A stretch of 64,000 nt of DNA from IMG/VR virus record IMGVR_UViG_3300042889_001305, one strand, 5' to 3'. A program made the translations under genes and the position numbers. Of this stretch, positions 4,639 to 39,804 are shown piece after piece (the stretch's first letter is position 1; every line of letters begins with the position of its first letter). Origin of the DNA: a virus (Duplodnaviria > Heunggongvirae > Uroviricota > Caudoviricetes). Under the pieces are notes generated by a model that was not told the origin of the DNA, did not search any database, and saw only the letters and a program-made list of their open reading frames with translations.

Positions 4639-4645
4639 ATTTATT

Positions 4646-12559: not shown

Positions 12560-12563
12560 TAAA

Positions 12564-13796: not shown

Positions 13797-13831
13797 AACC
13801 TTTTATTATTTTATTCAGTTTATATTTTATC

Positions 13832-16096: not shown

Positions 16097-16109
16097 AATA
16101 TTGTTTTAT

Positions 16110-19985: not shown

Positions 19986-20215
19986 TATTTATTTTTTTCC
20001 TTCTTTGTTTTTGTTTTAATTTCTTCAACTTGAGTTTCGACTTCTTCGGTAATCACTTCGGTCTTACTCTTTCCTTTGGATGATTTCCATTCGCTCTTTG
20101 GAACAAATTTCCAATGCCCACCTTTTACTCTCTCATCTGCCTCGATATCAGTCACTCTTTTAATTTCTCCTAACGTATAGGATTTTCCTTCCTTAATTGT
20201 TTTAATACACTTCAT
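19985..20215 (-). CDS. Hypothetical small protein with a Lys/Glu-rich tail
   Basis: 76 aa ORF with an ATG start, between the RNase H and helicase genes. Confidence 0.4.
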   Translation of the reverse strand: MKCIKTIKEGKSYTLGEIKRVTDIEADERVKGGHWKFVPKSEWKSSKGKSKTEVITEEVETQVEEIKTKTKKEKNK

Positions 20216-20237
20216 AGTTTTCCTCCATGTTTAATTG

Positions 20238-21281: not shown

Positions 21282-21296
21282 TGTGTTGTTTTTAAA

Positions 21297-22418: not shown

Positions 22419-22430
22419 AAAATTTGGTTA

Positions 22431-23267
22431 TTAATTGTTAAATAAATCATCGAATGCTGCAGCTACATCATCAGTCTTTTTAGAAACTGGTGGTTGTGAT
22501 GGAGTTTCGATTGAACCGCCTAAATCATGTGATACACTTGGTGTAGCCTTAGATGTAGTGTTGGTTGAAAGGGTTTCCTCTACTACTGAAGTTGTATCAT
22601 CATCTTCCGATGTTGCAGATGGATTTAACCATCCTTCTAATACATTCTTTAATTCAGCGTAAGAAAGTTCGGAATACAATTCAGTAATCTCAGTTTGATT
22701 ATCTAAGAATTTCTGAAGGTCTCCACCTTCTGCCAATGGTGTTTGATTTGGTTTAACACGCAGTGTAGTCGTAGGATACGATGTACCTGCATCTTCCGCA
22801 GAAATGTAATCAACTGTTAAATCTCTACCGGCATTTGGGTCAGTAATATCTCCGTAATCGGGGTCAGCAATGTAACCCAAAATTTCTTGATAAACTGTCT
22901 TGCCAAATCCCCAAAATTTAACTCCTTCACTTTCTTGACCGCGAACAATAACAGGAACGAAGGTTCTCAACTTAGGCTCCATTGCCTTTGCTGCTTTCCA
23001 ATCTTCCTTATCACCCATTCTTTTAAGTTTGTCTGCAAACTCAACAATAGGGTCAGGTCTACCAAATGAAATTGGAGATAGATAAGTTTTGTTATTTACG
23101 TTGTAGTGAAAATAAAGTTCGATAAAAGGATTATCTTTGTTGAACTTGTAAGGGACGATACGGACTTGGGATTTGCCAGGTGTTGGTTTCCACAATGCAT
23201 CCGTTTTCTTTTGTGTGTTTTGTAGTTTGTTTAGTCTACCTCTAATTGCGTTAATGTCTAATGCCAT
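22431..23267 (-). CDS. Single-stranded DNA-binding protein (gp32-like), putative
   Basis: The N-terminal block KPTPGKSQVRIVPYKFNKDNPFIELYFHY resembles the gp32 core. The acidic C-terminal tail DDVAAAFDDLFNN is typical of SSBs. It sits upstream of uvsX. Confidence 0.55.
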   Translation of the reverse strand: MALDINAIRGRLNKLQNTQKKTDALWKPTPGKSQVRIVPYKFNKDNPFIELYFHYNVNNKTYLSPISFGRPDPIVEFADKLKRMGDKEDWKAAKAMEPKLRTFVPVIVRGQESEGVKFWGFGKTVYQEILGYIADPDYGDITDPNAGRDLTVDYISAEDAGTSYPTTTLRVKPNQTPLAEGGDLQKFLDNQTEITELYSELSYAELKNVLEGWLNPSATSEDDDTTSVVEETLSTNTTSKATPSVSHDLGGSIETPSQPPVSKKTDDVAAAFDDLFNN

Positions 23268-23352
23268 TTTTTCTCCGTTTAAGTGTTTAAAATTAAGTTG
23301 TTTTATGGTTTTATTTACGAGTCTTTCCTACTCGCGGTGTGTGTATATAAAT

Positions 23353-23375
23353 ATACGAATTTCCGATTTTCGTAT
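23353..23375. promoter_or_regulatory. Inverted repeat ATACGAA-N9-TTCGTAT upstream of the SSB gene, with the TATATAAATATA motif adjacent (23344-23355)
   Basis: atacgaatttccgattttcgtat. The same TACGAA/TTCGTA half-sites lie inside the promoter spacers at 25587-25618 and 13832-13863. Confidence 0.45.
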
Positions 23376-23394
23376 ATAATTAATCAAAGAATTT

Positions 23395-25017
23395 TTATAA
23401 TTTATTCAACGATTCAATTGCAAATTCAACGTTATTAACATATGTTTGTCTGAATTCTTGTATAGCTAATTCCCACATTTCATTATTAGCCGGAATATCT
23501 ACAAAGAATGAATTAGCTTCAATTGCATTTATCTTTTCTTCATCCGATAATGTTTGATAGTATTCAGAAAAATCATAATTATATTGCTCTTTCAACGATT
23601 TCTGATTAAGTACATTTATTCGAACCAACCGACCTATTAATTGTCTTGCGAATTCAGTAAGTGATAGCCCGTCACCATCATCTTTATCAGTTCTCTTTAA
23701 AACCATTACTCCACTCATAGTAGGAATATTCATTCCCATAGTTCCTTTATGAACGACAAGAATTACGGATAAAGGGTCTTCGTTATTATTTAATTTTCGT
23801 TTTAATGAAGTTTCATTTTCTTGTTCAATACTTCCATCGGGAGAGTAAGATTCATTTCTACCACTTGTCATAACACATGTTTTAAAATCACCTTCCATTC
23901 CCAAATCTAAATAAATTTGATTTACCCTTTCCAATACGGAATCTACTTCATATGGATTATCATATCCACTAATAGCACATGATAACAAAAGTGTTTTCTT
24001 AACTCCTGTAATTAATTTTGAGTTTTCAATTTCAATAATTCTTTCTTTTACTTTATCAAATGTTTCTTCTACCTTTTCTAAATTCAAATATCCATGTTCT
24101 TTAATCCATGCCTGTTTTGGTAGTAAAAGTTGCACAGGACAACTTTTATTTATAATTTGAAAAGTAGTTTTTGAATTATTGATTGCTACTTTTCCAGTTT
24201 GTTCACCATTTGGTGTTGCGGTTAAACCAAATACATATGGATTGTAACGTGTAATTTCAGATAATAAATTATAGAGGCATGCAGAATAACCATCGGTATT
24301 CCAACCTACTACCTTTTTATAAACTTCTGGATTAGTACATAACCACGTGTGGGCCTCATCGATAATTATCGCATGTTTTACGTTACTTTTCTTACAATAT
24401 TTTATAAGATTCTTTCCATTCTTACTTACCAATCCTTTGTGAGTTGAAATATGGATTACACGATGACCATCTTCTAAAAGTTCAAGTGTACGTTGAGGGT
24501 TATCTGAAAAAAACCATTTATTTGTTTGTGCACATAATAAAAAATCAATTTCATCTAAAATACCACATTGTGGTGCCGATACTATCACTAATTGAAGATT
24601 ATGTTTTGGTTTTGACCATTCTGGTATCATATATTTAGTAATCGTAAATGTTTTACCTTGACCAGTTTTACCAACAATAATACCAATATTATTTGTTATT
24701 TTTGGAAATAGAGGTGAATTACAATATGCAATCCAATCTTTCCATATAAAATCGATAGGGTCTATCCAACTACTACCTTCTACTTTTTTTAAGTTTCTAC
24801 CCGGTGTCTGCCAATCTTGATATAAATTTGTCTTGTATTGTGCACAATTACCACATAATGTTAAAAGATTATCTGATAAATTATTATTAGGATTACCATC
24901 CCAGTGTTCAATTGTTAAAATACCTTTTGAATTGTTATCAATTGGTAAGGTATAGGTACATTCATAACCTAATATAGCGTTACAATTTTCACAATATTCT
25001 TTTTTACTATACTTCAT
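23395..25017 (-). CDS. HNH endonuclease domain fused to an SF2 (DEAH) helicase/ATPase
   Basis: The N-terminus has CENC...EHWDGNPNNNLSDNLLTLCGNCAQ (His-Me finger with Zn-binding cysteine pairs). Walker A VGKTGQGKTFT and Walker B IIIDEAHTW follow. 540 aa. Confidence 0.7.
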   Translation of the reverse strand: MKYSKKEYCENCNAILGYECTYTLPIDNNSKGILTIEHWDGNPNNNLSDNLLTLCGNCAQYKTNLYQDWQTPGRNLKKVEGSSWIDPIDFIWKDWIAYCNSPLFPKITNNIGIIVGKTGQGKTFTITKYMIPEWSKPKHNLQLVIVSAPQCGILDEIDFLLCAQTNKWFFSDNPQRTLELLEDGHRVIHISTHKGLVSKNGKNLIKYCKKSNVKHAIIIDEAHTWLCTNPEVYKKVVGWNTDGYSACLYNLLSEITRYNPYVFGLTATPNGEQTGKVAINNSKTTFQIINKSCPVQLLLPKQAWIKEHGYLNLEKVEETFDKVKERIIEIENSKLITGVKKTLLLSCAISGYDNPYEVDSVLERVNQIYLDLGMEGDFKTCVMTSGRNESYSPDGSIEQENETSLKRKLNNNEDPLSVILVVHKGTMGMNIPTMSGVMVLKRTDKDDGDGLSLTEFARQLIGRLVRINVLNQKSLKEQYNYDFSEYYQTLSDEEKINAIEANSFFVDIPANNEMWELAIQEFRQTYVNNVEFAIESLNKL

Positions 25018-25045
25018 ATTTTAAGTTTTATGTTTTATTATTAAG

Positions 25046-25077
25046 CTAAGATACGATTATTATCTGATATATCCAAA
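25046..25077 (-). promoter_or_regulatory. Host-type promoter (TTTG-N20-TATCTTAG) for the HNH-helicase gene
   Basis: The reverse complement reads TTTGGATATATCAGATAATAATCGTATCTTAG, which has one mismatch to the -7 consensus TAnnTTTG. Confidence 0.45.
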
Positions 25078-25088
25078 TATTCTATCGT

Positions 25089-25559
25089 TTATTTTGCCCA
25101 TTTACCATTAGAAACTATTTGTGCAATAATTCCATATACTGATAGGTCTTGAAAGGTATCTTCTATTGATTCCCCAACTGAATCCTCTTTACTTAGGACT
25201 ACCAATTGTTTTAATCTTTGGATTTTATCGTTCATTCTAAACCATAATCCCGTTAGTGATAATTTCTTATCCTCAGCAGTTTCTAATTTAGTACCAACCG
25301 AAATATTGTTTGGGCCGTAGTTTGATTGTTTTAGACAAAACAATTCGTATTGAGTAAACATAAGTCGTTTAAACTCATCCGTCATTTCTGGATATTCTTT
25401 TTCGACCTGTTCTATGATTTTGGGATTATCATATTTGATAAATGCAACCTCATCATCTTTAGTCTCCAATTTAGGAGCGATGTTCATTTGAAGTTGATTC
25501 TTCACCTGTTGGCCTATAATCTTAGGGCCACTTGATTGTGGGGGTGTGTTTTTTGCCAT
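25089..25559 (-). CDS. Hypothetical protein (156 aa)
   Basis: ATG start. A host-type promoter lies 28 nt upstream. Confidence 0.45.
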   Translation of the reverse strand: MAKNTPPQSSGPKIIGQQVKNQLQMNIAPKLETKDDEVAFIKYDNPKIIEQVEKEYPEMTDEFKRLMFTQYELFCLKQSNYGPNNISVGTKLETAEDKKLSLTGLWFRMNDKIQRLKQLVVLSKEDSVGESIEDTFQDLSVYGIIAQIVSNGKWAK

Positions 25560-25586
25560 TATAACCTTTATTTATTTTTATTAATT

Positions 25587-25618
25587 CAAAGATACGAATA
25601 ATATTTCGTATTACCAAA
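25587..25618 (-). promoter_or_regulatory. Host-type promoter (TTTG-N20-TATCTTTG) with an embedded palindrome TACGAA-N6-TTCGTA
   Basis: The reverse complement reads TTTGGTAATACGAAATATTATTCGTATCTTTG. Confidence 0.6.
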
Positions 25619-25619
25619 T

Positions 25620-26030
25620 TTATTGAGGAGTATTTTCAGAAGTTTCTATCACTTCAAAAATTCTTGTACTAAGTTTCTTAGTTCCTTCGGTATTTGTCAC
25701 TATAATAGTGTTTCTAAATTTTTCCCAATCTATCTCAAAACTCTTATCTAATTTACCACCATTTTCCTCTTTAACTAATTCATTTAGGGCGTTGATTGTA
25801 TATAAGGTATTAGATTGTTTTTTTCTATGTACTAAAATAGTATCTTTTAGTGGAGTAGATGGTTTATATTGAGTATCTATATTGTATGTAATATATAATT
25901 CATCTAAGTTAGATTTATTCTGAAGCACGTATATGTAATTATAAACAATTGTATATGTTTGTCTAATTTTTTCTAGTATGGTTTGTAACTCATCTCTTTT
26001 TGTAAAGGTACACAATAATTGTGTTTGCAT
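25620..26030 (-). CDS. Hypothetical protein (136 aa)
   Basis: ATG start preceded by AGGAGAGA. Confidence 0.45.
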   Translation of the reverse strand: MQTQLLCTFTKRDELQTILEKIRQTYTIVYNYIYVLQNKSNLDELYITYNIDTQYKPSTPLKDTILVHRKKQSNTLYTINALNELVKEENGGKLDKSFEIDWEKFRNTIIVTNTEGTKKLSTRIFEVIETSENTPQ

Positions 26031-26103
26031 CGATTCTCTCCTATTTTTTTATACTCTCTACAATAAGTATAAAAAACGAAATCGAAAGACTTATTTACTG
26101 ATA

Positions 26104-28347
26104 CTAGTCATCTAAATCATCACCACTTTCGGTATCGTATGCAGTATTTTCATTATCTACCATTGTATCTGGAACTTTCCCATCACCTGTGAATGAATAT
26201 TGTGGCCCACCTCCTGCTCTACCTGCAGTTCTTCTAGTTCTATATGTAATCGAATAATCATTAGGTTCATTTGTACCTTTATCAGTTACAAAATGTGGTT
26301 CACCATTATCATCATAATATTGTTTATTATGTTCTAATCCGTATCCATCTGAAGTTCTAATACTATTCGCATCGTTAATCATACAAAGTGCAACTTCAAC
26401 AGGTACTTCTCCTTTTTTATTACGAGCATTACCTACATTATTTTTACCTATTAATTTTTCAATTTTTTCTTCGGTCATTATTTTACCCATCCTAGTCGCA
26501 TATTCCTTATCGATTCCAGCCAACCTTTTACCAAACTCTTCCCAATATTTATCTTTACTAGGAAATGAAGTTGATGCCATTTCCTGTTTTATTTTTTCAA
26601 TTTCAGATGTGTATTCTGCTATAATAGTAGCATATTCATTTAATTCTTTTTCATCGAATACCCCTGTTAATCCAATTTCACCTAATGAATTTATTACGAA
26701 TTTTTTAGTTTTATCGATAGTTTCCTCTTTAGTATCTCCTCTATATAGTTCATCATTTAATACTAATAAATGACCACCTTCTCCTAAATACTGACCAGTC
26801 ATTTCTCTTTTGTTTGGGTCTGGATGTACCGATTGAATAGCTTTTGCATTTGCAGGGCAACCATACGTTCTACCTGATTTACCAAACTTACAACTAATCA
26901 ATGAAACCATACCACTACCATCTTTCATAATAACATCTCCTGCTGGGAAATTACCCTTAGATGGTAAGTACACTTCTTCTCCTCTTGCCAATAGGGTTTC
27001 ATATAAACGATTTTCAGCTAATTGTTTCATTACCGCAGAAGCAGCATCTGCATCTGCCTCGTGTAAATCAACCATCATTTGATTATAAGACTCATCAATT
27101 GCTGTAGCTAATTCTTCAGATGGTGATTCGTATTTATCTAATAGACTTTGTAATCTATTTTTATGATTTTGTAACGCAGAAACAAATTTTTCATCAATTT
27201 CACCATTCTTAGACATGTCAGTTGCGACTTGAATTGTTCTATCTAATGCCGGATTTTTAAAACTTTGTTCCAAATATTCTTTTGAGTATTTATTACTCGG
27301 CATTTTAGGATTTCCACTCTCATCCATAACTGAAAAGAATCCCCATAATGATTCATTTACTCTACTTAAAATTGGATTACTTTGGAAAAATTCCTTTACT
27401 TGTTTATATTTTTTTGGATTTGCTTCGTTTTCTTTACCTAAATCCGGTTTAGCTGCGGATGATAATTTATCCTTAATACCCTTTTGATTATGTTCTCTTA
27501 CTTCCGCGTGTTGTTTTACTCTATTAACTAATTCTGCTGCTGATGCAGTTCCTGCTTTTCCTGAAATGATTTTTCGATTTCCACCCAATGCATTAAAATA
27601 TGCTTTAGTTCCGTTATCATTGGTAGAGAATTTCATATTATCCACTAACCATTGTGCACTCTCTTTTTTTAATTCATCTGATGAATTCTCATCATAAAGA
27701 TTTTCAATTCTACTTAATGCTTCATTTACTAATTCCTGTTGTTGTGCATTTAGAAATTGGGTATTTTCACCAATTCTTCTTTGAAAATCATTTATAGCAG
27801 ATTGGTCTTTTTTAGAATATTTTCGATTGGATTCTCTAGCTGCTTTCTCCGATGCTTCTTTCTCTTTCTTAAATCGTTCTTGAGATTGAGGGTCTTGTAA
27901 TGAAGTTCCCTTTTCCGGTTCTGCAGGTGGTTGTTCACCCCCTACCGCTTGACCTTCTTCCCCGTTACCTTTTTCCTGTGGTTTAGCGTTTGGATTGTTA
28001 GTTGGTCCGCCCTCTTCACCAGCTTTATTTTTTTGTTTTTCATATTCATCATCACTTACCGGTGAATATTTTCCATTATCATCTTTTTTAAATTTCTGTG
28101 CACCTTCTTTACCTTCATCACTTACTTTTACATAGAATCCCTGTCCAACGTGTTTGTATTGAGCATCTTCTTCTCCACCTTCGGTTAAATTTTGGATTAG
28201 TTCCGATTCCATTGAACTCAAACCCCATTCTGATAGAATATCTGATATTAGGTCTTGATGTTCTTTTTTAGCGAGTATAGGATACCCTTCGGTACTCCTA
28301 TAAGAAAGTTCACGTAATAATTTATTGAAAAATTGATTTGAAGTCAT
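26104..28347 (-). CDS. Large hypothetical protein with an acidic/Lys-rich, probably disordered region (residues about 50-200)
   Basis: 747 aa. The low-complexity segment is EGGEEDAQ...KGNGEEGQAVGGEQPPAEPEKG. The C-terminus is acidic (ESGDDLDD). No catalytic motif recognised. Confidence 0.5.
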   Translation of the reverse strand: MTSNQFFNKLLRELSYRSTEGYPILAKKEHQDLISDILSEWGLSSMESELIQNLTEGGEEDAQYKHVGQGFYVKVSDEGKEGAQKFKKDDNGKYSPVSDDEYEKQKNKAGEEGGPTNNPNAKPQEKGNGEEGQAVGGEQPPAEPEKGTSLQDPQSQERFKKEKEASEKAARESNRKYSKKDQSAINDFQRRIGENTQFLNAQQQELVNEALSRIENLYDENSSDELKKESAQWLVDNMKFSTNDNGTKAYFNALGGNRKIISGKAGTASAAELVNRVKQHAEVREHNQKGIKDKLSSAAKPDLGKENEANPKKYKQVKEFFQSNPILSRVNESLWGFFSVMDESGNPKMPSNKYSKEYLEQSFKNPALDRTIQVATDMSKNGEIDEKFVSALQNHKNRLQSLLDKYESPSEELATAIDESYNQMMVDLHEADADAASAVMKQLAENRLYETLLARGEEVYLPSKGNFPAGDVIMKDGSGMVSLISCKFGKSGRTYGCPANAKAIQSVHPDPNKREMTGQYLGEGGHLLVLNDELYRGDTKEETIDKTKKFVINSLGEIGLTGVFDEKELNEYATIIAEYTSEIEKIKQEMASTSFPSKDKYWEEFGKRLAGIDKEYATRMGKIMTEEKIEKLIGKNNVGNARNKKGEVPVEVALCMINDANSIRTSDGYGLEHNKQYYDDNGEPHFVTDKGTNEPNDYSITYRTRRTAGRAGGGPQYSFTGDGKVPDTMVDNENTAYDTESGDDLDD

Positions 28348-28464
28348 TTTTATTTTTTTTACCCATTACAAATATACAAAAAATATTTCGGTTTTCCTAA
28401 TTTATCTTTGCTTATTTATATAAATATCCATATTCCGAATTATATCCCGTAAGTTGTTTTTATG

Positions 28465-29082
28465 TTAAGATACATTTAGTTGTACATAATCAACCCATGG
28501 GCCGTGATTACCATTCCAGTTTCCTACATCTTGTCCGGTTATTCGAACTTCTACGGATGCTATTGTATCAAATGTTGCCGGAATTTCACTTCTATCTAAA
28601 GTCAATGTTACATCGGTATAGTTCAAAGGAGCGATACTTTGATTTGTTGTTTTTGTTACAAGGGTTGTTCCACCGGAGTTTTTAAATAATAATGTAAAAT
28701 TATAAGTATCATTATTATTTGGGCCGTTGTTCTCACGTTTAATATTAACAATTCCAGTAAAAGAATTTGCAGTAGAAACATAACTACTAACATTTACAGA
28801 TTGACTAACTGTTCTACTTACATATGTGAAGTACAATACTCCATTTAAAACTGCAGCTTGATTTGATGAATAAAAATCCCATGTTCCAAATCCACCACTT
28901 GCTGTCCATCCCGTTGTTCCGGAACTAAAGTCAGAATTGGTTAATAATTGTGTTGTAGTTGGTGATGATACTACCGAACCTGATATAATTGCTTTACCAA
29001 CAAAATCACCAAATGCTAAATTCTTACCACTTGTAGATGTTTTTAATTCAGTTATTATTCCGTTTGTTAATACTATTGCCAT
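28465..29082 (-). CDS. Hypothetical beta-rich protein, possibly carbohydrate-binding or structural
   Basis: 205 aa. S/T/N/G-rich. No motif recognised. Confidence 0.4.
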   Translation of the reverse strand: MAIVLTNGIITELKTSTSGKNLAFGDFVGKAIISGSVVSSPTTTQLLTNSDFSSGTTGWTASGGFGTWDFYSSNQAAVLNGVLYFTYVSRTVSQSVNVSSYVSTANSFTGIVNIKRENNGPNNNDTYNFTLLFKNSGGTTLVTKTTNQSIAPLNYTDVTLTLDRSEIPATFDTIASVEVRITGQDVGNWNGNHGPWVDYVQLNVS

Positions 29083-29093
29083 TTTGTTTTTCC

Positions 29094-29759
29094 TTATTTT
29101 TGTTTGAATTTAAACCCTGTTAGTTTTTCAATATCCGAAACCTCTACTTTATTATTATTTATACCATCTGGTTTAGATAAGTCGTTCTCAAATAAAAACG
29201 CAAACCATTCTTTATTTCTAACTACATAAAAAACTTTCCAACATTGTGTCGGTACGGAAATCTTTCCTATCTTTTTTAACTCACCCACATTTCCTGCCCA
29301 CACATGAACGGAATCTGATATTAGAGCAACATCTCTTGTTAGGGTTTCTAAGGATTTCCAATCTCCCGCATTTAATCTATGGTATTGTGCTACCATATTT
29401 GAATAATAGAAACTTTCATCTTGTATCGCCGGAGTTTGACATTGATTTGATTTTGCCGGCATTAGATGACCTCTATCAAATCCACTTCCTACATAATCGT
29501 TTCCAATATTGGTTTCGTTTGGTAAAAGGGGGTCGGGTTTAAAATTATCTTTACGTGGAATTGGATTTGGACAACCAATTTTTGCTTTGGTTTCCCACCA
29601 TTCTACTAAGACAGGATATCTTTTTGATTTACTAAAGTGTGAGGTGTAATTTGTGTGTTTTAAAACCACTACATCTTGTGCGAATGTTACAATTGTAACG
29701 AATGATAGCATCAACGTCATTAACGTAATCCCCACTATTGTTCCTAAATTTTTTCTCAT
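29094..29759 (-). CDS. Exported non-specific DNA/RNA endonuclease (beta-beta-alpha-Me, Serratia/EndoG family)
   Basis: N-terminal signal peptide MRKNLGTIVGITLMTLMLSFVTIVTFAQD. It carries the DRGH motif as GSGFDRGHLMPA. 221 aa. Confidence 0.75.
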   Translation of the reverse strand: MRKNLGTIVGITLMTLMLSFVTIVTFAQDVVVLKHTNYTSHFSKSKRYPVLVEWWETKAKIGCPNPIPRKDNFKPDPLLPNETNIGNDYVGSGFDRGHLMPAKSNQCQTPAIQDESFYYSNMVAQYHRLNAGDWKSLETLTRDVALISDSVHVWAGNVGELKKIGKISVPTQCWKVFYVVRNKEWFAFLFENDLSKPDGINNNKVEVSDIEKLTGFKFKQK

Positions 29760-29790
29760 ATACTAACTTTTCTCGTTTAGTATATAAATA

Positions 29791-31053
29791 TTAAATTTTA
29801 GAGTAATCCATGCCCCAACTCGCCTTAATTGGGAAGCCAAAACTTTCGAGCACGATTTTAATCCCCTTTGCAGACTCCATCCCCCAATTCAGAGGATACT
29901 CAAAGAGGAATGAATCATAGAGATATAGAACCGGTAGTGGAAGGTCGGATGCTTTTAATTTGTGGATGACTTCCATATTAAATTCCGTTTCGGTTGCTTG
30001 AAGGAGATAATTGAATGCCTTTTGTGGGGTTAGCCCTTCAATCCATTCGATAGGGATTTTACGCCCCTTTCCGGTTTGTATCCATCCTCTCTCCAATGAA
30101 CCGATATGGAGTTTTTGAATGAACTCATCAACCTTTTGGAAAAATGGGATACTCCTATCCTCCTCACTCACTCCACCATAAAGAATCCTAAAGGTTCGAG
30201 CCTTTGAGTCCTCATAGGAACAACCATATTGGTCTGCCAACCATTGGTGGACGGAAGTGGTTGGAAGGTCATACCCAATCAACTTGCCAATAATTCGAAC
30301 GTGATACGCATCGTAATCCATCCCTAAAAACATCGTTCCATCACGGGGAATAAAAACTTCTCTCGAACCATCCTTCTTATTCAATGCACCGAAATTGATG
30401 CCACCATGTCGATTGGAGGGACGGGAGGTTAGGGTATAGGGATTGTATTCTGTCCAAATGATTTCATTATGGAGGTGTTTAGTATTGGAAGGCCATCTAT
30501 CAATAAATTTTTTGTAGTCGACGTGGAGTCCCATTCGTTCAATATCTGAAAGGATAGGAATCATCGTATCATCAATCCACAAATCGTTTGTTGTATAAGG
30601 GATATCTTTACTAATAAGGTTTAATACCTCTACCCACTTCATTATAGGGAAACTTTTACCCAAATCATCTCTTATACCCAAACGAGTATAAAAGTTCAGG
30701 GCAGGTTCTAAAAGGGTGTTATATGGGATTGTTTTATTATGGAGGAAAAAGGATTCAGTTTCCAAATCATATAGGGATTGAATACCCAAATTCGTTTGTA
30801 GCAATCCCTTCTTATTCCACACTTTTTTAGGTTGTGTAGATTCACTAAGGTCAATTGTAATCGGTTCACAATCGGTATGGTCAAATGGAATTACCCATTC
30901 TCCCTTTGTTTCGAATCGGACATAGAGAAACGATATATAGGTATTCATTGGATGCTTTTCCAAATCAGCCCATATAGGAAAAACTATTGAGGTATGATTA
31001 CCCCAATAGTTTAAAAACTCTTGAACTTCTTGTTCGGTTTCTACTATAATCAT
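29791..31053 (-). CDS. Family A DNA polymerase-like protein (palm/fingers only, no exonuclease domain)
   Basis: FLGMDYDAYHVRIIGKL parallels motif A DYSQIELRI. KARTFRILYGG parallels motif B O-helix K-xxx-F-xxx-YG. VLYLYDSFLFE parallels motif C VHDELVFE. All three occur in canonical order within 420 aa. Confidence 0.5.
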   Translation of the reverse strand: MIIVETEQEVQEFLNYWGNHTSIVFPIWADLEKHPMNTYISFLYVRFETKGEWVIPFDHTDCEPITIDLSESTQPKKVWNKKGLLQTNLGIQSLYDLETESFFLHNKTIPYNTLLEPALNFYTRLGIRDDLGKSFPIMKWVEVLNLISKDIPYTTNDLWIDDTMIPILSDIERMGLHVDYKKFIDRWPSNTKHLHNEIIWTEYNPYTLTSRPSNRHGGINFGALNKKDGSREVFIPRDGTMFLGMDYDAYHVRIIGKLIGYDLPTTSVHQWLADQYGCSYEDSKARTFRILYGGVSEEDRSIPFFQKVDEFIQKLHIGSLERGWIQTGKGRKIPIEWIEGLTPQKAFNYLLQATETEFNMEVIHKLKASDLPLPVLYLYDSFLFEYPLNWGMESAKGIKIVLESFGFPIKASWGMDYSKI

Positions 31054-31057
31054 TTTA

Positions 31058-31089
31058 CAAAGATACGAAAAATTAGTTAGATTTCCAAA
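31058..31089 (-). promoter_or_regulatory. Host-type promoter (TTTG-N20-TATCTTTG) ending 4 nt before the ATG of the PolA-like gene
   Basis: The reverse complement reads TTTGGAAATCTAACTAATTTTTCGTATCTTTG. This implies a leaderless or near-leaderless transcript. Confidence 0.55.
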
Positions 31090-31399
31090 ATTGATACCAT
31101 TTTTTATTTTTTACATCCGGTTTTGCAAATGGTTGGGTGTTATCCCAAACATTTACTATACCCCCATACCTTACACTCATCATTTGACAAAAGATTTGAT
31201 GATATTCAGGTGGTATTCCTTCAAAATCTGCTTTGATTGATACATCTAATGATATACGGTCATCATCACCAACTATTAACCTCAAATGGTCTCTCATTTC
31301 AATAATGGTGCTCGTTTTCATTGTCAGATAACTCGCATCTCCAATATAAAATTCACTTTTCTTTTCGTTACTACTCACTTGTTTCTGTTTTTTCTTCAA
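31073..31399 (-). CDS. Hypothetical protein
   Basis: 108 aa. The track start is TTG, and the true start is uncertain. Confidence 0.35.
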   Translation of the reverse strand: MKKKQKQVSSNEKKSEFYIGDASYLTMKTSTIIEMRDHLRLIVGDDDRISLDVSIKADFEGIPPEYHQIFCQMMSVRYGGIVNVWDNTQPFAKPDVKNKKWYQFWKSN

Positions 31400-31528
31400 T
31401 GACCAAATATTTCTTATCCTTATGTTCTTTGATTATACCTGTTTGGATTAATTTATCTACCATTTTTGGATTTTGTTGTACCAATAACATAATGGTTTGT
31501 TCCATATAGATTATTTTCATATCTAATT

Positions 31529-32440
31529 TTATTGGATATTTTTAAACATTTGTGGAACTTGCCCATAGACCGGTAATTTACCATCCCATTTGTTAATATA
31601 TTCCAATTGTAACAACAATGGTGTTAGAGTTACTTGCTTCATTCGATTTGATTCCGCTTCTGCCTTTGCAGAGGTTAACATTGCCTGTGCATTACCTTCC
31701 GCAGTTGCTACTTTAATCTTCGCTTGTGCTTCAGCAGTTTTCACTTCGTTCTCTGCTCTTAATGCTGCTTGAACTGCGTTGTTCTTAGCTTCGATTGAAC
31801 GTTTGAATGTTTCTGGATAAATCAAATTCGATGTGAACTGATTAATTGTAAATCCCTCTTTTAATAATTGTCCATCTAATAACCTACGAACTTCAATTTC
31901 AAATATTGCTCTATTTGAGATTAACTCATCTGCGGTATATTTGTTAGTTGCTAATCTGAATGCATCATACACTGCTGTTTTTAAAAAGCCTTCCTCAATA
32001 TCTTCCAAAGGTCTACGATACTTAGAAAATATTGCCGGAACTTTATCCCTCTGAACTGAATAGTTCATAATCGGAGATACGTTAAATTCAGAACCATCCT
32101 TACTATTTACAATGAATGAATTTTCACCTTTGTATTCCTTATGTTGAATGAATGTAGGGAACTCATAAATCTTAGTTGTAATTGGATTATAGAATACCAT
32201 ACCGGTAACTGCTACTACATCATCCACCCCTTTGTTATCACCATATTGGTTTACTTTAACACCAACATATCCTGCATCAATTCTTTCACATGAATTGAAT
32301 AATACTACTAATAGGATAAATCCTAATACACCTGCACTAATTGCTTTAATCATTTTTTTGATTTTTAATTGTTTGTTTAATTTATATTCTTCAATCTCTT
32401 TTTGTCTTAGAGCTTGATAATCCGTATCATATACTGCCAT
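31529..32440 (-). CDS. SPFH / band-7 (stomatin/prohibitin/HflC-like) membrane protein
   Basis: One N-terminal TM helix (ISAGVLGFILLVVLF), then an SPFH-like core and an Ala/Glu/Lys-rich coiled-coil (AVQAALRAENEVKTAEAQAKIKVATAEGNAQAML). Confidence 0.7.
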   Translation of the reverse strand: MAVYDTDYQALRQKEIEEYKLNKQLKIKKMIKAISAGVLGFILLVVLFNSCERIDAGYVGVKVNQYGDNKGVDDVVAVTGMVFYNPITTKIYEFPTFIQHKEYKGENSFIVNSKDGSEFNVSPIMNYSVQRDKVPAIFSKYRRPLEDIEEGFLKTAVYDAFRLATNKYTADELISNRAIFEIEVRRLLDGQLLKEGFTINQFTSNLIYPETFKRSIEAKNNAVQAALRAENEVKTAEAQAKIKVATAEGNAQAMLTSAKAEAESNRMKQVTLTPLLLQLEYINKWDGKLPVYGQVPQMFKNIQ

Positions 32441-32441
32441 A

Positions 32442-32702
32442 TTATTTTGTTTTAGGTTTACGTTTTGGTTTTACATTTGTAGGTTCAATTGGTTTAACTT
32501 CGTCTACTGATTCATCAGGACTCCAAACCCAATCATATAATGCTAAACCACCCCAAATAAGTAATAGTAAAAGGGCAATACCACCTACTATATTAGCGAA
32601 AGTATCTGCCATTGTTAGACTAGGATACACTCCAAATTGTAATAACAACCATATTGTTATGAAAGTGAAGATTTGTTTTTTGTACTTTTTAATTTTATCC
32701 AT
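32442..32702 (-). CDS. Small membrane protein with two predicted TM helices
   Basis: FTFITIWLLLQFGVY and GGIALLLLLIWGGLALY, followed by a basic tail. It overlaps the start of the SPFH gene. Confidence 0.5.
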   Translation of the reverse strand: MDKIKKYKKQIFTFITIWLLLQFGVYPSLTMADTFANIVGGIALLLLLIWGGLALYDWVWSPDESVDEVKPIEPTNVKPKRKPKTK

Positions 32703-32715
32703 TTATTTTATTTAT

Positions 32716-33201
32716 TTACCATATTTGAAATCCTCCACAATTGCGAAGAAAGTTAATCCATTCTTTTAATCTACCTAACGATACACTATGTGATGGTTCA
32801 ACTAATGACCCATCTAATGCTACAACTGAGGTAAATAGAATATCACCATATTCGTATTGGTCATCCAATCCTTCGGTAACTTCGTTTGGTATAAATTTAC
32901 CCGTACCTGCTTCACACCACATACCCATACAAACATATAATCGGTCTTCATCTTCCGTAAGATGTTCACCATATTTTTCAGATATCAATAATTCTATTGC
33001 ATCTGCTAACTTATTACACTCACGTTGATTCTTTAAACCTTTACCATCATTTGAACCCCAATTTGTGGTATCAAACCCCAATCCCTTTAATTCGATTGCA
33101 GTTTCAGAAAGTGCTTGGATTGGTCTCCATCCCCACCAATTAGCACCGAAATAATCACCTGTTTCTATTTTGGGCTTTCTGCCCGATACATCTACTCCCA
33201 T
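32716..33201 (-). CDS. Hypothetical protein (161 aa)
   Basis: ATG start. No motif recognised. Confidence 0.4.
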   Translation of the reverse strand: MGVDVSGRKPKIETGDYFGANWWGWRPIQALSETAIELKGLGFDTTNWGSNDGKGLKNQRECNKLADAIELLISEKYGEHLTEDEDRLYVCMGMWCEAGTGKFIPNEVTEGLDDQYEYGDILFTSVVALDGSLVEPSHSVSLGRLKEWINFLRNCGGFQIW

Positions 33202-33219
33202 AATTTTATATTTTAAATT

Positions 33220-33435
33220 TTATCTATATAATGTTACAAACGAACCGAAGTTTTTATCAAACACATTTACTGCGTTTTCATAATCACTACTCATCATTTC
33301 TTTTTTGATTGCTGCAGCATCTAATCCCAATTGTTTGGCTAGATTACCGGCAGTTCCGATTAAGAAAAATACATTACCTTGTGGACCTGTAAGGTCAATC
33401 TCAATACCTTTGTTTTCTTTTTTACTTTTTATCAT
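33220..33435 (-). CDS. Hypothetical small protein
   Basis: 71 aa, ATG start. Confidence 0.35.
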   Translation of the reverse strand: MIKSKKENKGIEIDLTGPQGNVFFLIGTAGNLAKQLGLDAAAIKKEMMSSDYENAVNVFDKNFGSFVTLYR

Positions 33436-33439
33436 TGTT

Positions 33440-33787
33440 TTAATTTTTAAGTTTTAAATTTATTATATGTTTACAATCCTTACCTCTACCAAATCCATGT
33501 GCCGGACAACTACATGTCCATCTACCATTCTCACTTACCACCTCATAAATCTTACCTTTACTACCTTCAACTGAGAAAGTTTGTTTTTTTACTATTTTTG
33601 GTAGTATTACTACTGATTTTATATCATTTGTAAACTGTCGTTTAGTCCACATCTTTTCTAACTCACTCCATTCATATTTTCTATCTACCTCCACCCAACC
33701 CAATTTCGGGTCAGTCGTTACAATATACCATTGACCTGATATAATAGATTGAAACGATACTGGTGGTAAAAGTGATTCTATTTTCAT
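33440..33787 (-). CDS. SWIM zinc finger protein
   Basis: C-terminal CxC-Xn-CxH in GRWTCSCPAHGFGRGKDCKHI. Confidence 0.55.
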   Translation of the reverse strand: MKIESLLPPVSFQSIISGQWYIVTTDPKLGWVEVDRKYEWSELEKMWTKRQFTNDIKSVVILPKIVKKQTFSVEGSKGKIYEVVSENGRWTCSCPAHGFGRGKDCKHIINLKLKN

Positions 33788-33789
33788 AA

Positions 33790-34161
33790 TTATACCATTG
33801 AAAATCCAGCTACGGAATTTGTTGTTGAACGAAAGGGTTTTGATGCTTGAGCAAATCTACCCAAACTTTGAACTGAATTAGATGGTTGACCGATAGTATC
33901 CCACGGCGATTCCCATTTATCAGGTAATGTACCATCCTTCATTCGAAGTAAATGAACTGCCGGTAAAAAATCCTTTATATCACCATATTTTACCTTAAAG
34001 AAGGTATTTACCCTATTTTCTTTATCAACTAAAATAAAGAGAACTGAGCGGGATTTAACCTTACATAATTTAAGATTTCGGGTCTTAACCTTACCATTAA
34101 GGGAAACGGTCACATCAATAAATTGACCAGCGGGGGTGTTGTCAAAAATAGAAGAGTTCAT
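33790..34161 (-). CDS. Hypothetical protein
   Basis: 123 aa. A host-type promoter lies 31 nt upstream. Confidence 0.4.
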   Translation of the reverse strand: MNSSIFDNTPAGQFIDVTVSLNGKVKTRNLKLCKVKSRSVLFILVDKENRVNTFFKVKYGDIKDFLPAVHLLRMKDGTLPDKWESPWDTIGQPSNSVQSLGRFAQASKPFRSTTNSVAGFSMV

Positions 34162-34191
34162 ATTGTTTATAGTTTAATCATTTATTACAAA

Positions 34192-34224
34192 GCTAATATA
34201 CGAAGAATAGCTGAGATTTCCAAA
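34192..34224 (-). promoter_or_regulatory. Host-type promoter (TTTG-N20-TATATTAG)
   Basis: The reverse complement reads TTTGGAAATCTCAGCTATTCTTCGTATATTAG. It contains the TTCGTAT half-site. Confidence 0.45.
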
Positions 34225-34225
34225 T

Positions 34226-34447
34226 TTATTTTAATGAATAACAAAATTGATATCCACAATCCTCATCATAATCATCCTTTTCTTCAACCGATTGACCTAC
34301 TATTTCCTGTAACTTTTTCACATCAACTCTATTCCAATATCCAAATCGAAGATACACCTCATTTGAACCAAAAGCCTGGTCAATATCAAAATAACCAAAC
34401 ACCTCTTCAATTTTCTTTAATACATTAATATCAATTCTATTCATCAT
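34226..34447 (-). CDS. Hypothetical small acidic protein
   Basis: 73 aa, ATG start. Confidence 0.35.
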   Translation of the reverse strand: MMNRIDINVLKKIEEVFGYFDIDQAFGSNEVYLRFGYWNRVDVKKLQEIVGQSVEEKDDYDEDCGYQFCYSLK

Positions 34448-34475
34448 AACGTTTATATTTTAAATTTTAATAATA

Positions 34476-34835
34476 TTACAATCCTTGTTCTCTACGCAAA
34501 TCGTACTCTTCCTTTTCAATCTCTGAATACTCTGCCACTTTAAGGTAGGGTTGAAACTTTGTTTCGTAATAACCTCTAAGGTTAGCCATATCAATCATTG
34601 AATCAACGAATGATTTACGAACATAAGTCATATCAGATGAACCAAACCCCTGGTCTTCCGGCCAATCTTGATAATCTTCAGCCACATCATTTAGGGCTTC
34701 ATACACTGCATCGGAGTAAGTAATTACTCTTTTAGTAAAACGACCCTCAACAGGGAAAGCGTTTCTAACTACATCGAACCCTTCGATTAAGGAGGCGGTA
34801 GCGAGAACGGAATTAAGGTTAAATGGTAGGCTCAT
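34476..34835 (-). CDS. Hypothetical protein
   Basis: The track start is TTG at 34868. I prefer the in-frame ATG (MSLPFNLNSV...) at about 34833-34835, but it is uncertain. Confidence 0.4.
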   Translation of the reverse strand: MSLPFNLNSVLATASLIEGFDVVRNAFPVEGRFTKRVITYSDAVYEALNDVAEDYQDWPEDQGFGSSDMTYVRKSFVDSMIDMANLRGYYETKFQPYLKVAEYSEIEKEEYDLRREQGL

Positions 34836-34878
34836 AATTTTATATTTTAAAGGTTTATTATCTCTCAATCTTATACAG

Positions 34879-34910
34879 CTAAACTACACATTATTTTCCA
34901 CATTTCCAAA
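34879..34910 (-). promoter_or_regulatory. Host-type promoter (TTTG-N20-TAGTTTAG)
   Basis: The reverse complement reads TTTGGAAATGTGGAAAATAATGTGTAGTTTAG. Confidence 0.4.
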
Positions 34911-34944
34911 TATTTTACCGCTTATTTTTCATTTATTTTTAGAC

Positions 34945-34975
34945 AAAAAATAACTCATTGATTTTCAATGAGTTA
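34945..34975 (-). terminator. Rho-independent terminator after gene 34998-35729
   Basis: Perfect 10 bp inverted repeat taactcattg / caatgagtta with a 5 nt loop. An A6 run on the plus strand gives a U-run on the minus transcript. Confidence 0.6.
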
Positions 34976-34997
34976 TAATATGTTGGTAATCAATTGG

Positions 34998-35729
34998 TTA
35001 TATTTGTAGGTATATATACTCTGAAAACTCCTTATTTCCATTGGGTGAAAGATGCCAATCTCCATTATTTAATTCAGAATCACAAGTCCACCCTTTATTT
35101 ATGGTTAATTCTCGTAAATTTGTTAAAGCCGGTTCAATATATTTCCTAATATTATCACCCATTAATTTATCCCATGATAATAATAATGTTGATATATTAT
35201 TTTTTTTATCATCAATACCTTTTAAAGTATAGTATGTTGATAAAATAGAATTTCGTTGTAAAAATATTTCATTTGATAATTTTTTATTGAATATATTACA
35301 AAAGGTAGTTAACTCCGCATCGTAATATGGATATTCTTCATTAAAGTTTCTATGAGGTGAAAACGGAACAATTGAATTCAGGTCATTTTTTTTTAAAATT
35401 GAATGCTGAAATGCTATTCTATTCCAATAGGTTAATTGAAAAATTATTAGTGAATCATCATATATTTCACGAGGTAATCTATCTCCATATAGTTCTATTT
35501 GCTTATCATTATTAGGATGCGGAAATTCTAATTTAGAATTTATACAATTTAAATAATATAAATTTTCAATGTTTGAACTACCATTTATTGAATAGTTGTA
35601 TACATTTTTAGCTGATATATTTAACTTATCCGCTAACAAATCTACATATGATTTGCAATTAGGGTCAATAGAATTGGTATTTAACGAATGAGAACACCCA
35701 AAAATATATAAATGTTTGTATTTATTCAC
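34998..35729 (-). CDS. Hypothetical protein, weakly SGNH/GDSL-hydrolase-like
   Basis: The N-terminal LYIFGCSHSLNT resembles GDSL block I with Asp replaced by Cys. GTG start. Low confidence. Confidence 0.35.
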   Translation of the reverse strand: MNKYKHLYIFGCSHSLNTNSIDPNCKSYVDLLADKLNISAKNVYNYSINGSSNIENLYYLNCINSKLEFPHPNNDKQIELYGDRLPREIYDDSLIIFQLTYWNRIAFQHSILKKNDLNSIVPFSPHRNFNEEYPYYDAELTTFCNIFNKKLSNEIFLQRNSILSTYYTLKGIDDKKNNISTLLLSWDKLMGDNIRKYIEPALTNLRELTINKGWTCDSELNNGDWHLSPNGNKEFSEYIYLQI

Positions 35730-36498
35730 CCCAATACTTTTGTCTTAATTCGTACATATCAATTGCCTCTCTTTTCATTTGATTTCCAGCATGAAAATAT
35801 GCACCTTCTTTAAGATAACCACCTAAGAAATTTCTTCTCATTCTATTAGGGTCTTTATTTGGTTCTGACCCATGTACTACATGTGAGTGTAAAAGTGCAA
35901 CTTGTCCTTTTTTCAAATACCCTTCTATCTTACGGAAATCATGCCCTTCTGGCATTACACAACTTTTACCTCTCTCACTTCTCCAGTTATCGGTATTTGT
36001 TGCTTTTCTTTCTTCGTTATCTTCGATTGGTAAAACCGGTAATCTATGTGAACCTTCATAGTTCCATACTGCACCATTTTCAGGGTCGTGATTATCTAAT
36101 GCCAATGCAGTGTTGATAATTTCATTGTGTCCACAACCAGTATAGAATGCATTTTGATGTTGGTCTCTACCCAATTCGCCCTTTGGTTTGTAATAACCCC
36201 AAGTTTGTAATCCAACAACTCCACCTTCCATTAGGAATTCTGCTGCTTCTAAAATTTTTGGATGTGAAAATAATTTAGCTATTTTTTCTGATTCTCTATG
36301 TGGATACATAATGGGTTCGAACTCTTGCCATTTTCCTGGTTCTTTTTCATTACGTTCTACACGTAAACGGTCTAATTCTTCGTTGATTTCATCTACTTCT
36401 GCTTCGGTTAATAATTCCAAAACTGTGAAGCCTCGGTATCTCCAATCAAATGACATTTGTTGAAGTTCTTCCGTTGTAAGGTGTTTGTATTTTTGCAT
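35722..36498 (-). CDS. Fe(II)/2-oxoglutarate-dependent dioxygenase, PhyH (phytanoyl-CoA dioxygenase) family
   Basis: HQNAFYTGCGH and ALLHSHVVHGSEPN...R fit the PhyH HxD/E...H...R arrangement. 258 aa. Confidence 0.6.
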   Translation of the reverse strand: MQKYKHLTTEELQQMSFDWRYRGFTVLELLTEAEVDEINEELDRLRVERNEKEPGKWQEFEPIMYPHRESEKIAKLFSHPKILEAAEFLMEGGVVGLQTWGYYKPKGELGRDQHQNAFYTGCGHNEIINTALALDNHDPENGAVWNYEGSHRLPVLPIEDNEERKATNTDNWRSERGKSCVMPEGHDFRKIEGYLKKGQVALLHSHVVHGSEPNKDPNRMRRNFLGGYLKEGAYFHAGNQMKREAIDMYELRQKYWGE

Positions 36499-36564
36499 AA
36501 CTTTTGTGTTTTATATAAATATATATAATTTGTAAAAACGATAATTATTTTTTTATGATTGTTA

Positions 36565-36954
36565 TCACTTATAAAATTGTAATAAATTTGGTAGGTATAA
36601 TTTTAAGGTAGGTATTTTTTCATATACCAATTTTATTGCCCTTCTATTTGATTCACTTACACTTACATCAAATACATCACCATTTTCTCTATATTGAGTT
36701 TCCTTTGGGCCAGATATTCTCCATTTCAAAGAACAACGACTGAATAAGGGGTTTGTTTGAAATCTTAAATATGTTTTTCCATTGATTTCAAATATAGGTG
36801 AATTCACATCATTTACTTTTTTTATAAAATATCTACTGATATATCCACGAGTATAATCTAATTTAGATGGCGTAGGAATATAGGTATCAAATGAATCATT
36901 TGGTAATGATGTTGTTGGGTTTATCAACTTATTATATGAATCTAATATACTCAT
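36565..36954 (-). CDS. Hypothetical protein
   Basis: 129 aa, ATG start. It is translationally coupled to the 835 aa structural gene upstream. Confidence 0.4.
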   Translation of the reverse strand: MSILDSYNKLINPTTSLPNDSFDTYIPTPSKLDYTRGYISRYFIKKVNDVNSPIFEINGKTYLRFQTNPLFSRCSLKWRISGPKETQYRENGDVFDVSVSESNRRAIKLVYEKIPTLKLYLPNLLQFYK

Positions 36955-36956
36955 TG

Positions 36957-39464: not shown

Positions 39465-39471
39465 AATTTAT

Positions 39472-39759: not shown

Positions 39760-39804
39760 AATTTAATTTATTTTTCACCGGATAGTTTACTATATTAAGG
39801 TGGG

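Follow-up and report, generated by a model that had tools for sequence, protein, structure and literature searches.

A 64,000-nucleotide stretch of viral DNA (IMG/VR record IMGVR_UViG_3300042889_001305, Caudoviricetes; hereafter the window) encodes, on the minus strand at 29094-29759, a 221-residue protein that is well supported, by its sequence and predicted structure, as a beta-beta-alpha-Me DRGH nuclease of the Serratia/NucA/EndoG family with intact catalytic and metal sites. The protein starts with a predicted signal peptide, and we consider it moderately probable that the product is an exported, periplasmic and compartment-restricted nuclease, which would act on unprotected nucleic acid outside the cytoplasm. 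The gene and its parts are as follows.

29094-29759, minus strand: complete coding sequence of the 221-residue pre-nuclease, an uninterrupted open reading frame (ORF) with an ATG start and its stop codon at 29094-29096
29679-29759, minus strand: predicted signal peptide, residues 1-27, with n-region MRKNLGTIVG, h-region ITLMTLMLSFVTIV and c-region TFA
29097-29678, minus strand: mature nuclease domain, residues 28-221, a single domain (Pfam match at residues 28-220)
29466-29477, minus strand: codons of D95-R96-G97-H98, containing the catalytic His of the beta-beta-alpha-Me finger, as read from the sequence
29346-29372, minus strand: codons N130 to E138, with the invariant Asn and Glu located by alignment to NucA

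The family assignment rests on the agreement of homology, invariant catalytic residues and fold. The motif GSGFDRGHLMPA is present in the ORF, with D95-R96-G97-H98 encoded as GAT AGA GGT CAT on the reverse complement, and its occurrence is no matter of chance because the protein matches Pfam PF01223 (Endonuclease_NS) at 125.1 bits, far above the curated cut-off of 23 (E 4.3e-36; residues 28-220 on model positions 14-218 of 223). PHROG 14168 'nuclease' was matched as well (E 4.6e-22), and the best sequence matches in PDB were human EXOG, Anabaena NucA, EndoG and Serratia nuclease. The alignment with NucA runs over the full length (query 26-218 to NucA 38-241, ~28% identity), and the DRGH residues align with the RGH motif of EXOG and NucA. 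Among 241 homologs, D95, R96, G97, N121, N130 and E138 are invariant, as are the three cysteines C63, C107 and C173, while R69 and H98 are each kept in 240. In the alignment to NucA structures 1zm8 and 2o3b, N130 and E138, eight residues apart, fall on the conserved N...E pair; by correspondence with Serratia N119/E127 and NucA N155/E163, we take N130 to be the Mg2+-ligand Asn (the Asn of the DNN stretch in NucA) and E138 the catalytic Glu. An AlphaFold2 model built from a 65-sequence alignment reached a mean pLDDT of 92.2 and a pTM of 0.85, and the Foldseek matches to PDB all came from the Endonuclease_NS family (EXOG, NucA, EndoG and Serratia nuclease, probability 1.00, TMq 0.74-0.80), the closest superposition being NucA 2o3b (TM 0.80, rmsd 1.6 A, 205 columns).

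The signal peptide was assessed through the evolution of the family, by comparing the segment before Q28 with the part after it in the 241 homologs. The N-terminus, MRKNLGTIVGITLMTLMLSFVTIVTFA followed by QDVVVLKH, combines a positive start (MRK...), a hydrophobic core with a Kyte-Doolittle value of ~2.3 and a T25-F26-A27 site, and it is the sole classical signal-peptide-like N-terminus among the 60 minus-strand ORFs of at least 70 residues in the window. A full-length signal-like N-terminus is present in 235 of the 241 homologs, with lengths of 16-32 residues, most commonly 19 (134/235), and 27 in 49 homologs including the query clade. Mean pairwise identity is 37% in this segment vs 75% in the mature part. 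Nevertheless, within the 235 the net charge of the n-region is +2 in 190, only one of 4927 signal positions is acidic, and across all homologs position -1 is A/S/T/G (240/241), position -3 is L/T/V/A/G/S/I, and position +1 is Gln (239/241, otherwise K or E). As the Gln at +1 could by itself reflect the general conservation of the mature protein, it was rechecked in 47 representatives that are at most 50% mutually identical, with the first conserved strand as anchor: a small residue followed by Gln lies between the hydrophobic core and this strand in 40 of them, and the residue at +2 is variable (D, T, N, E, S, V, P, G, K and others). A crude predictor that took the first -3/-1 site had fired inside the h-regions and returned meaningless +1 residues, and was replaced by this strand-anchored analysis. 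Gln at +1, the Q-rule, is specific to substrates of Bacteroidetes signal peptidase I (PMC5837995) and was recognised earlier in phage-encoded Porphyromonas proteins (PMC10367356); on sequence, Q28 matches this rule. The 8-residue insertion that distinguishes the signal of the query clade is polar (NLGSYVG) in most members and reads as an extended n-region. Since the sequence is free to vary while the n/h/c properties, the -3/-1 residues and Q+1 are kept, we infer that residues 1-27 form a Sec/signal peptidase I signal, with predicted cleavage between A27 and Q28.

Positive charges lie N-terminal to the hydrophobic segment, so that the catalytic domain would face the periplasm even if the segment remained uncleaved. 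As to the final destination, none of the 235 homologs has a Cys within the last four signal residues and +1 is never Cys, which leaves no lipobox; a C-terminal domain for type IX secretion (e.g., PF18962, Por_Secre_tail) was not found, PF01223 being the sole Pfam match at E <= 1 and the pre-nuclease ending 1 residue past it, and longer family members carry no such domain either. According to PMC11285876, the cargo of type IX secretion in Bacteroidota needs this C-terminal domain to cross the outer membrane. The lack of both features makes it most likely that the nuclease would reside in the periplasm during infection and be released at lysis alone. This conclusion depends on the phylum of the host, but for a cyanobacterial or another diderm host the periplasm would still be the default destination.

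An earlier, sequence-only reading of this DNA had proposed a phage-encoded DRGH nuclease of the beta-beta-alpha-Me type with a genuine signal peptide, exported to the periplasm or outside. The nuclease assignment is borne out by the PF01223 match, the near-complete retention of DRGH (240-241 of 241 homologs) and the NucA-like fold, and the predicted export by the n/h/c pattern, the -3/-1/+1 site and the unequal divergence of signal and mature part. The phage origin is likewise confirmed by the tail sheath, tube, baseplate, gp32, UvsX, DnaB, PolB and ribonucleotide reductase (RNR) genes around the nuclease gene. With regard to destination, the periplasm is the likelier of the two, and a location outside is less likely for a protein that has neither type IX secretion domain nor lipobox and ends with the nuclease fold. 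Of the possible roles offered in that reading (superinfection exclusion, nucleotide scavenging, attack on extracellular DNA), none could be singled out. The same reading had allowed for a transmembrane anchor of a cytoplasm-facing protein, which is disfavoured by the charges N-terminal to the segment and the conserved site behind it.

The following mechanism is proposed. The pre-protein would be exported via Sec, and signal peptidase I would remove residues 1-27 and expose Gln28, which is probably cyclised to pyroglutamate. The mature 194-residue protein is predicted to be a Mg2+-dependent, sugar- and sequence-non-specific endonuclease of DNA and RNA, in which His98 would serve as general base and Asn130 and Glu138 would hold the metal. 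Having no outer-membrane secretion signal, it would accumulate in the periplasm of the infected cell and reach the medium only at lysis. Its substrates would be nucleic acid that enters the periplasm during infection and, once lysis merges the compartments, host DNA and RNA. Export itself may be the safety device, with the inner membrane parting the enzyme from replicating phage DNA and the capsids protecting packaged DNA. Anabaena NucA has an intracellular inhibitor, NuiA, that neutralises it, as the title of PDB entry 2o3b states. In the present family, no inhibitor gene of the NucA/NuiA type is conserved among the neighbour families within 4 kb of the nuclease in 54 loci, and the Pfam matches recorded for genes called across ~52 kb of the window include none of the NuiA type. 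Because a non-specific nuclease would be lethal to a replicating phage and no inhibitor travels with the gene, export would do the inhibitor's job, and neither an inhibitor gene nor DNA modification would be necessary.

Immunity of the phage through modified DNA, as had been suggested from the sequence, is therefore not needed, since export and capsids would suffice, and it finds no support in a gene that occurs in many phages with differing neighbours. For a related prophage enzyme, methylation makes no difference to the cutting of DNA (PMC4372405). Candidate DNA-modification genes are present on the minus strand of the window at 25089-25559, 17514-18620, 11339-12667, 2220-3854, 8699-10204 and 35722-36498, comprising a DUF1599 gene ('nucleotide modification associated domain 1'), three N6/N4 methyltransferase-like genes, an asparagine-synthase-like amidotransferase gene and a PhyH dioxygenase gene. 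They are not linked to the nuclease across loci.

With respect to the benefit for the phage, salvage or clean-up, that is, the release of nucleotides and phosphate and the freeing of virions, is a finely balanced proposition, neither probable nor improbable; the high nucleotide demand of large phages was counted in its favour, as were the adjacent GH19 gene and the S1/P1 fusion described below. Bacterial enzymes of this class (in Vibrio and Shewanella) serve the acquisition of extracellular DNA (eDNA) and phosphate. For streptococcal phage DNases, a lowering of viscosity has been proposed (PMC3258162). Exclusion of other phages, which is weighed below, receives a smaller share, and what remains falls to other roles. 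In a distant lineage (L063 7001-8243 and L064 4006-5248; GCA_046464045.1 / GCA_046463975.1), a GH19 endolysin-like gene follows 17 nt behind the nuclease and a Phage_DsbA gene lies 4 kb upstream of it, neighbours that may link the nuclease to lysis or periplasmic folding there. Extra domains were seen in single longer representatives (S1/P1 nuclease, response regulator and DUF5763); one of these, P0257 (466 residues), has an N-terminal S1/P1 nuclease fused to Endonuclease_NS behind a signal-like N-terminus, which hints at a nucleic-acid scavenging role in some carriers.

The nuclease is widespread and well conserved. A word-indexed search returned 3,105 clusters (90% identity) at E <= 1e-5, the best 120 of which are 75-96% identical to the query and 203-221 residues long. 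A profile search of 1.84 billion representatives gave 10,213 superfamily members, and the short nuclease subfamily appears compact because only 115 of these reached E <= 1e-30. At least 51 further viral loci carry close homologs, in varying gene neighbourhoods; IMG/VR holds 47 loci (53-98% identity, contigs up to 434 kb), and more distant representatives also sit in phage-like neighbourhoods. In a species-level genome collection, there were two homologs only, both in metagenome-assembled genomes (MAGs) and 58% identical. No neighbour is conserved, as no gene family occurs within 4 kb in more than 15 of the 54 loci, and at least three synteny groups can be distinguished; on a 326-kb contig, for example, the context includes sigma factor, ThyA and ATP-grasp genes. 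Furthermore, the nuclease is better conserved than the neighbours that are shared (e.g., 71% vs 40-43% in L028-L032). Taken together, the higher conservation and the unconserved neighbourhoods argue for strong purifying selection on a gene that moves between related phages by shuffling or exchange. In base composition, it matches the phage (GC 33.9% vs 33.5 +/- 3.2%; GC3 0.25 vs 0.22 +/- 0.06), which points to a long-resident phage gene and no fresh import.

Several other explanations have to be weighed against a soluble periplasmic enzyme engaged in salvage or clean-up. The most serious one keeps the compartment and changes the purpose: a periplasmic nuclease might destroy the DNA of competing phages, or transforming or conjugating DNA. 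Such exclusion would suit the predicted location and the T4-like carrier, and in T4 the host endonuclease I breaks down superinfecting T-even DNA once Imm/Sp block its entry. Contractile-tail phages, however, inject through a channel, where a nuclease alone should not reach the DNA; exclusion would require a partner of the Imm/Sp kind, and the nuclease has no conserved partner gene. In addition, the nuclease had no PADLOC defence-family match at E <= 0.01, and in the literature collection searched, no paper connected a secreted nuclease with superinfection exclusion. Superinfecting-phage DNA in the periplasm is a recognised entity for T4 (PMC8385771), and in Campylobacter, prophage nucleases of this class act as a block to natural transformation (PMC4372405). 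On these grounds, we regard exclusion as unlikely, though deserving of attention. A second alternative concerns the state of the N-terminus, which might remain uncleaved as a signal-anchor or SAR-like tether that holds the enzyme on the outer face of the inner membrane until depolarisation at lysis. The insertion in the query clade creates a 22-residue uncharged stretch rich in Gly, Thr and Ser (LGTIVGITLMTLMLSFVTIVTF), AlphaFold2 shows residues 5-29 as a single helix, and T4 RI has prompted the same debate, which was resolved toward a cleavable signal (PMC8385771). Nevertheless, the small -3/-1 residues and Q+1 are kept in the long variants, the insert is polar in most of them, as expected of an extended n-region, and 134 of the 235 homologs have a textbook 19-residue signal, which renders a tether improbable.

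It is less probable still that the enzyme works in the cytoplasm, degrading host DNA for nucleotide recycling as in T4 or T7, with an N-terminus that is irrelevant or a cytoplasm-facing anchor. The gene does lie among those for RNR, thioredoxin, polymerases, gp32 and UvsX; but the net charge of +2 before the hydrophobic segment in 190 of 235 homologs and the near absence of acidic residues predict an N-in/C-out topology, the phage's own DNA would be exposed to a non-specific nuclease with no conserved inhibitor gene to restrain it, and the three invariant cysteines would fit, as a weak indication, an oxidising compartment. Scarcely credible, finally, is the view that the contig is misassigned or chimeric and the gene a periplasmic nuclease of bacterial origin. 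A 58%-identical homolog does occur in a genuine Bacteroidia chromosomal context, but when this protein was used as query it had two close relatives only, all other matches being ~60% identical. The gene in the window lies on the same strand as the surrounding phage genes of a 131.8-kb contig, separated from them by gaps of 11-31 nt, and matches the phage in composition; the same protein recurs on several independent contigs, and close homologs are held by the 47 IMG/VR loci.

Some observations weigh against the preferred reading of an exported, periplasmic nuclease or restrict what can be drawn from it. Cleavage could be slowed or blocked by the 27-residue signal of the query clade, in which up to 22 residues are uncharged, and the enzyme would then stay tethered, facing the periplasm. 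High-molecular-weight DNA reaches the periplasm poorly, which weakens any role before lysis, and the sequence does not separate salvage, clean-up and exclusion. The position of the gene also varies by phage group (in the replication module here, after large unannotated genes in L054), so the timing of its expression cannot be generalised. Moreover, the nearest cultured phage is annotated as 'Microcystis phage Mel-JY01' (sheath at 46913-49348, 47% amino acid identity; PolB at 4646-7153, 51%), followed by Flavobacterium phage immuto (39%), which makes both the Bacteroidota host favoured below and the argument from the missing type IX secretion domain uncertain.

Beyond the single gene, it might be speculated, as a tentative and rather doubtful generalisation, that large freshwater myoviruses of the Bacteroidota type (100-430 kb contigs) keep a conserved, horizontally shuffled exported nuclease as weapon or tool, a lytic 'periplasmic nuclease module'. 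In one version, the module would serve as a periplasmic barrier of the infected cell, where the DNA of rival phages or from other foreign sources is destroyed; in the other, it would be a lysis-coupled enzyme that does no harm while compartmentation lasts and is set free once the holin opens the inner membrane. We are aware of no lytic phage in which either mechanism has been demonstrated.

Every gene in the window lies on the minus strand. Among them are structural genes (tail sheath, gp19-type tube, T4-type baseplate and tail fibres), replication genes (gp32, RecA/UvsX, DnaB-type helicase, 5'-3' exonuclease, family-B polymerase and clamp loader), genes of nucleotide metabolism (class I RNR and thioredoxin) and, besides the methyltransferase-like, Asn-synthase-like, DUF1599 and PhyH genes given above, a gene for an SPFH protein; this content marks the carrier as a large myovirus of the T4-like type. 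Besides the 131.8-kb JGI contig, three further contigs encode the identical nuclease protein. Neither an integrase nor a repressor appeared among the genes annotated in the 64-kb window, the genome being at least 132 kb, and a megablast of positions 20000-40000 against 50,697 phage records gave no match; this part of the window appears to have no close sequenced relative. The surroundings of the nuclease are as follows.

29791-31053, minus strand: upstream gene, 420 residues, weakly family-A-DNA-polymerase-like (PHROG 17, E 6e-9, residues 189-294)
28465-29082, minus strand: downstream gene, 205 residues, function unassigned, beginning after an 11-nt gap behind the nuclease stop codon
31058-31089, minus strand: nearest promoter-like motif upstream of the nuclease, TTTGGAAATCTAACTAATTTTTCGTATCTTTG, of the -33 TTTG / -7 TAnnTTTG type
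28369-28400, minus strand: next promoter-like motif, TTAGGAAAACCGAAATATTTTTTGTATATTTG, 21 nt upstream of a 747-residue gene, bounding the three-gene unit
4608-4639, 13831-13862, 25046-25077, 25587-25618, 28369-28400, 31058-31089 and 34193-34224, minus strand: copies of the 32-nt motif, in intergenic gaps and on the coding strand

From the promoter-like motifs before the PolA-like gene and after the 205-residue gene, the nuclease is probably the middle gene of a three-gene unit within the replication module. The 420-residue gene ends 31 nt before the nuclease start and adjoins the nuclease in 15 of the 54 loci; its product has no Pfam match and a negligible one in NCBIfam (DpoZ, E 0.007, 14.8 bits vs a cut-off of 500). 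A full family-B polymerase is encoded besides it, at 4646-7153. The annotated start or leader of the 420-residue gene would be unusual because no more than 4 nt separate the -7 motif from the ATG. For the 205-residue protein, no match was found in Pfam, PHROG, NCBIfam or PADLOC, and its candidacy as an immunity or inhibitor protein was rejected, as it accompanies the nuclease in only 5 related loci; beyond this ORF, NCBIfam and PADLOC gave no match for the nuclease or the 747-residue gene. The SPFH/Band-7 membrane protein is encoded at 31529-32440 on the minus strand (PHROG 200, E 2e-67), 1.8 kb upstream of the nuclease, and after it comes an 86-residue protein with two hydrophobic segments (32442-32702, minus strand); the two may form an SPFH/NfeD-like pair. 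Elsewhere in the window, a 56-residue product (~16303-16473, minus strand) matches Pfam PF07432, the Hc1 histone H1-like family.

The 32-nt motif TTTGG(N)AA(A/T)-N11-14-T(T/C)GTAT(C/A)TT(T/A)(G/A) occurs in 7 near-identical copies in the window, against 0.39 expected per window in random sequence of the same composition. By its sequence, it corresponds to the Bacteroidota -33 TTTG / -7 TAnnTTTG arrangement, and it probably defines an early or middle promoter class of this phage group; we infer that the copy at 31058-31089 drives the nuclease transcript. Across 51 further viral loci that carry the nuclease, the motif was counted 122 times on the same strand as the nuclease gene against a single copy on the opposite strand, in 35 of the loci, and it was not found in the bacterial loci L005 and L006. 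Its significance is limited to the extended form, as the generic TTTG-N19-21-TAnnTTTG pattern shows no enrichment in number (3 vs 2.25 expected). A sigma-70 scan did no better than shuffled sequence (promoter-like 64 vs 55.5; terminator-like 4 vs 4.7), and a terminator-like hairpin at 29238-29252 was taken as chance, lying inside the nuclease coding sequence.

A Bacteroidota host is favoured by the type of the promoter motif, by the low use of Shine-Dalgarno sequences (12 of 48 genes), by the conformity of the signal with the Q-rule and by the 58%-identical chromosomal homolog in a Bacteroidia MAG, where it lies beside genes for a type IX-sorted protein and for cytochrome oxidase assembly. A cyanophage origin was also considered. 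It draws on the cultured matches to Mel-JY01 and on L054 (JGI 3300050206 Ga0502761_0000047, 243.6 kb), whose 80%-identical nuclease has the same 27-residue signal and lies beside an AdoMet decarboxylase gene, with heme oxygenase and ferredoxin-dependent bilin reductase genes 7 kb away (features at 8702-9100 and 15329-16448). Heme oxygenase, bilin reductase and AdoMet decarboxylase are classically auxiliary genes of cyanophages. This origin was not adopted, as L054, with seven copies, and even Mel-JY01 carry the promoter motif of the Bacteroidota type. In Mel-JY01 (GC ~35%; L062, PP395634.1 50000-99999), TTTG-N20-TAnnTTTG motifs are intergenic at 3695, 12957, 14032 and 16116; either promoters of this type are a property of the phage lineage, or the host assignments disagree. 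No usable literature came up on a nuclease gene of this kind in the role of an auxiliary metabolic gene or on Mel-JY01.

If the nuclease is exported as predicted, very common lake phages would place a potent nuclease in the periplasm of every infected cell, and one or more of the following would be affected: the fate of competing phage DNA, the release and recycling of dissolved DNA, RNA and phosphorus at lysis, and the dispersal of virions. More than 3,000 clusters at 90% identity and ~75% identity of the mature part, across phages that share almost no neighbours, suggest a strong general benefit. The combination of a Q+1 signal with the promoter motif may offer a handle on the host phylum of uncultured phages that needs no more than their DNA. 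The enzyme, being small, single-domain and without a conserved inhibitor gene, could also become a practical nuclease.

Several known systems resemble the one described here. NucA of Anabaena sp. PCC 7120 (PDB 1zm8, 2o3b) and the Serratia marcescens nuclease (1smn, 1ql0) belong to the same Pfam family, share the RGH His and the N...E metal site, and are exported bacterial sugar-non-specific enzymes; unlike NucA, the phage protein is shorter, has three invariant cysteines specific to its subfamily, is phage-borne and has no conserved NuiA-like partner. Human and mouse EndoG and EXOG are top matches in both sequence and Foldseek searches and have the same catalytic motif, whereas they are mitochondrial, with a targeting presequence and no Sec signal, and EXOG carries an additional C-terminal domain that the phage protein lacks. 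Among phage-borne enzymes, the Campylobacter jejuni prophage nucleases CJE0566 and CJE1441 (of CJIE2 and CJIE4), likened here by description, also bear signal peptides; they sit on integrated elements and serve the lysogen by blocking transformation and removing biofilm eDNA, whereas the present gene belongs to a T4-like myovirus with no sign of lysogeny in the window. Streptococcus pyogenes Spd1 (and Sda1) is similarly a phage-encoded, non-specific beta-beta-alpha-metal nuclease with a cleaved signal peptide, for which reduced viscosity and dissemination of particles have been proposed as the benefit to the phage (PMC3258162). Spd1 differs in its Gram-positive host, its truly extracellular location, its part as a virulence factor against neutrophil traps and its prophage linkage to toxin genes, and it was not among the PDB sequence matches of the phage nuclease at E <= 1. 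The 'periplasmic DNA/RNA non-specific endonuclease' of the Klebsiella jumbo phages K64-1/RaK2 comes from lytic large myoviruses and has the same architecture, with 226 residues that align from residue 1, a signal-like N-terminus (MVKLLKTLVLITIFYIPFAFG followed by D) and a DKGH motif; it differs in its ~26% identity and in lacking Q at +1, the host being enterobacterial, and it is known by annotation alone. Thus, phage-borne nucleases with signal peptides are already known from Campylobacter CJIE2/CJIE4, Spd1 and K64-1/RaK2, and what is new here is the uncultured freshwater T4-like lineage, the signal conforming to the Q-rule, the wide and well-conserved distribution, and the lack of a partner gene.

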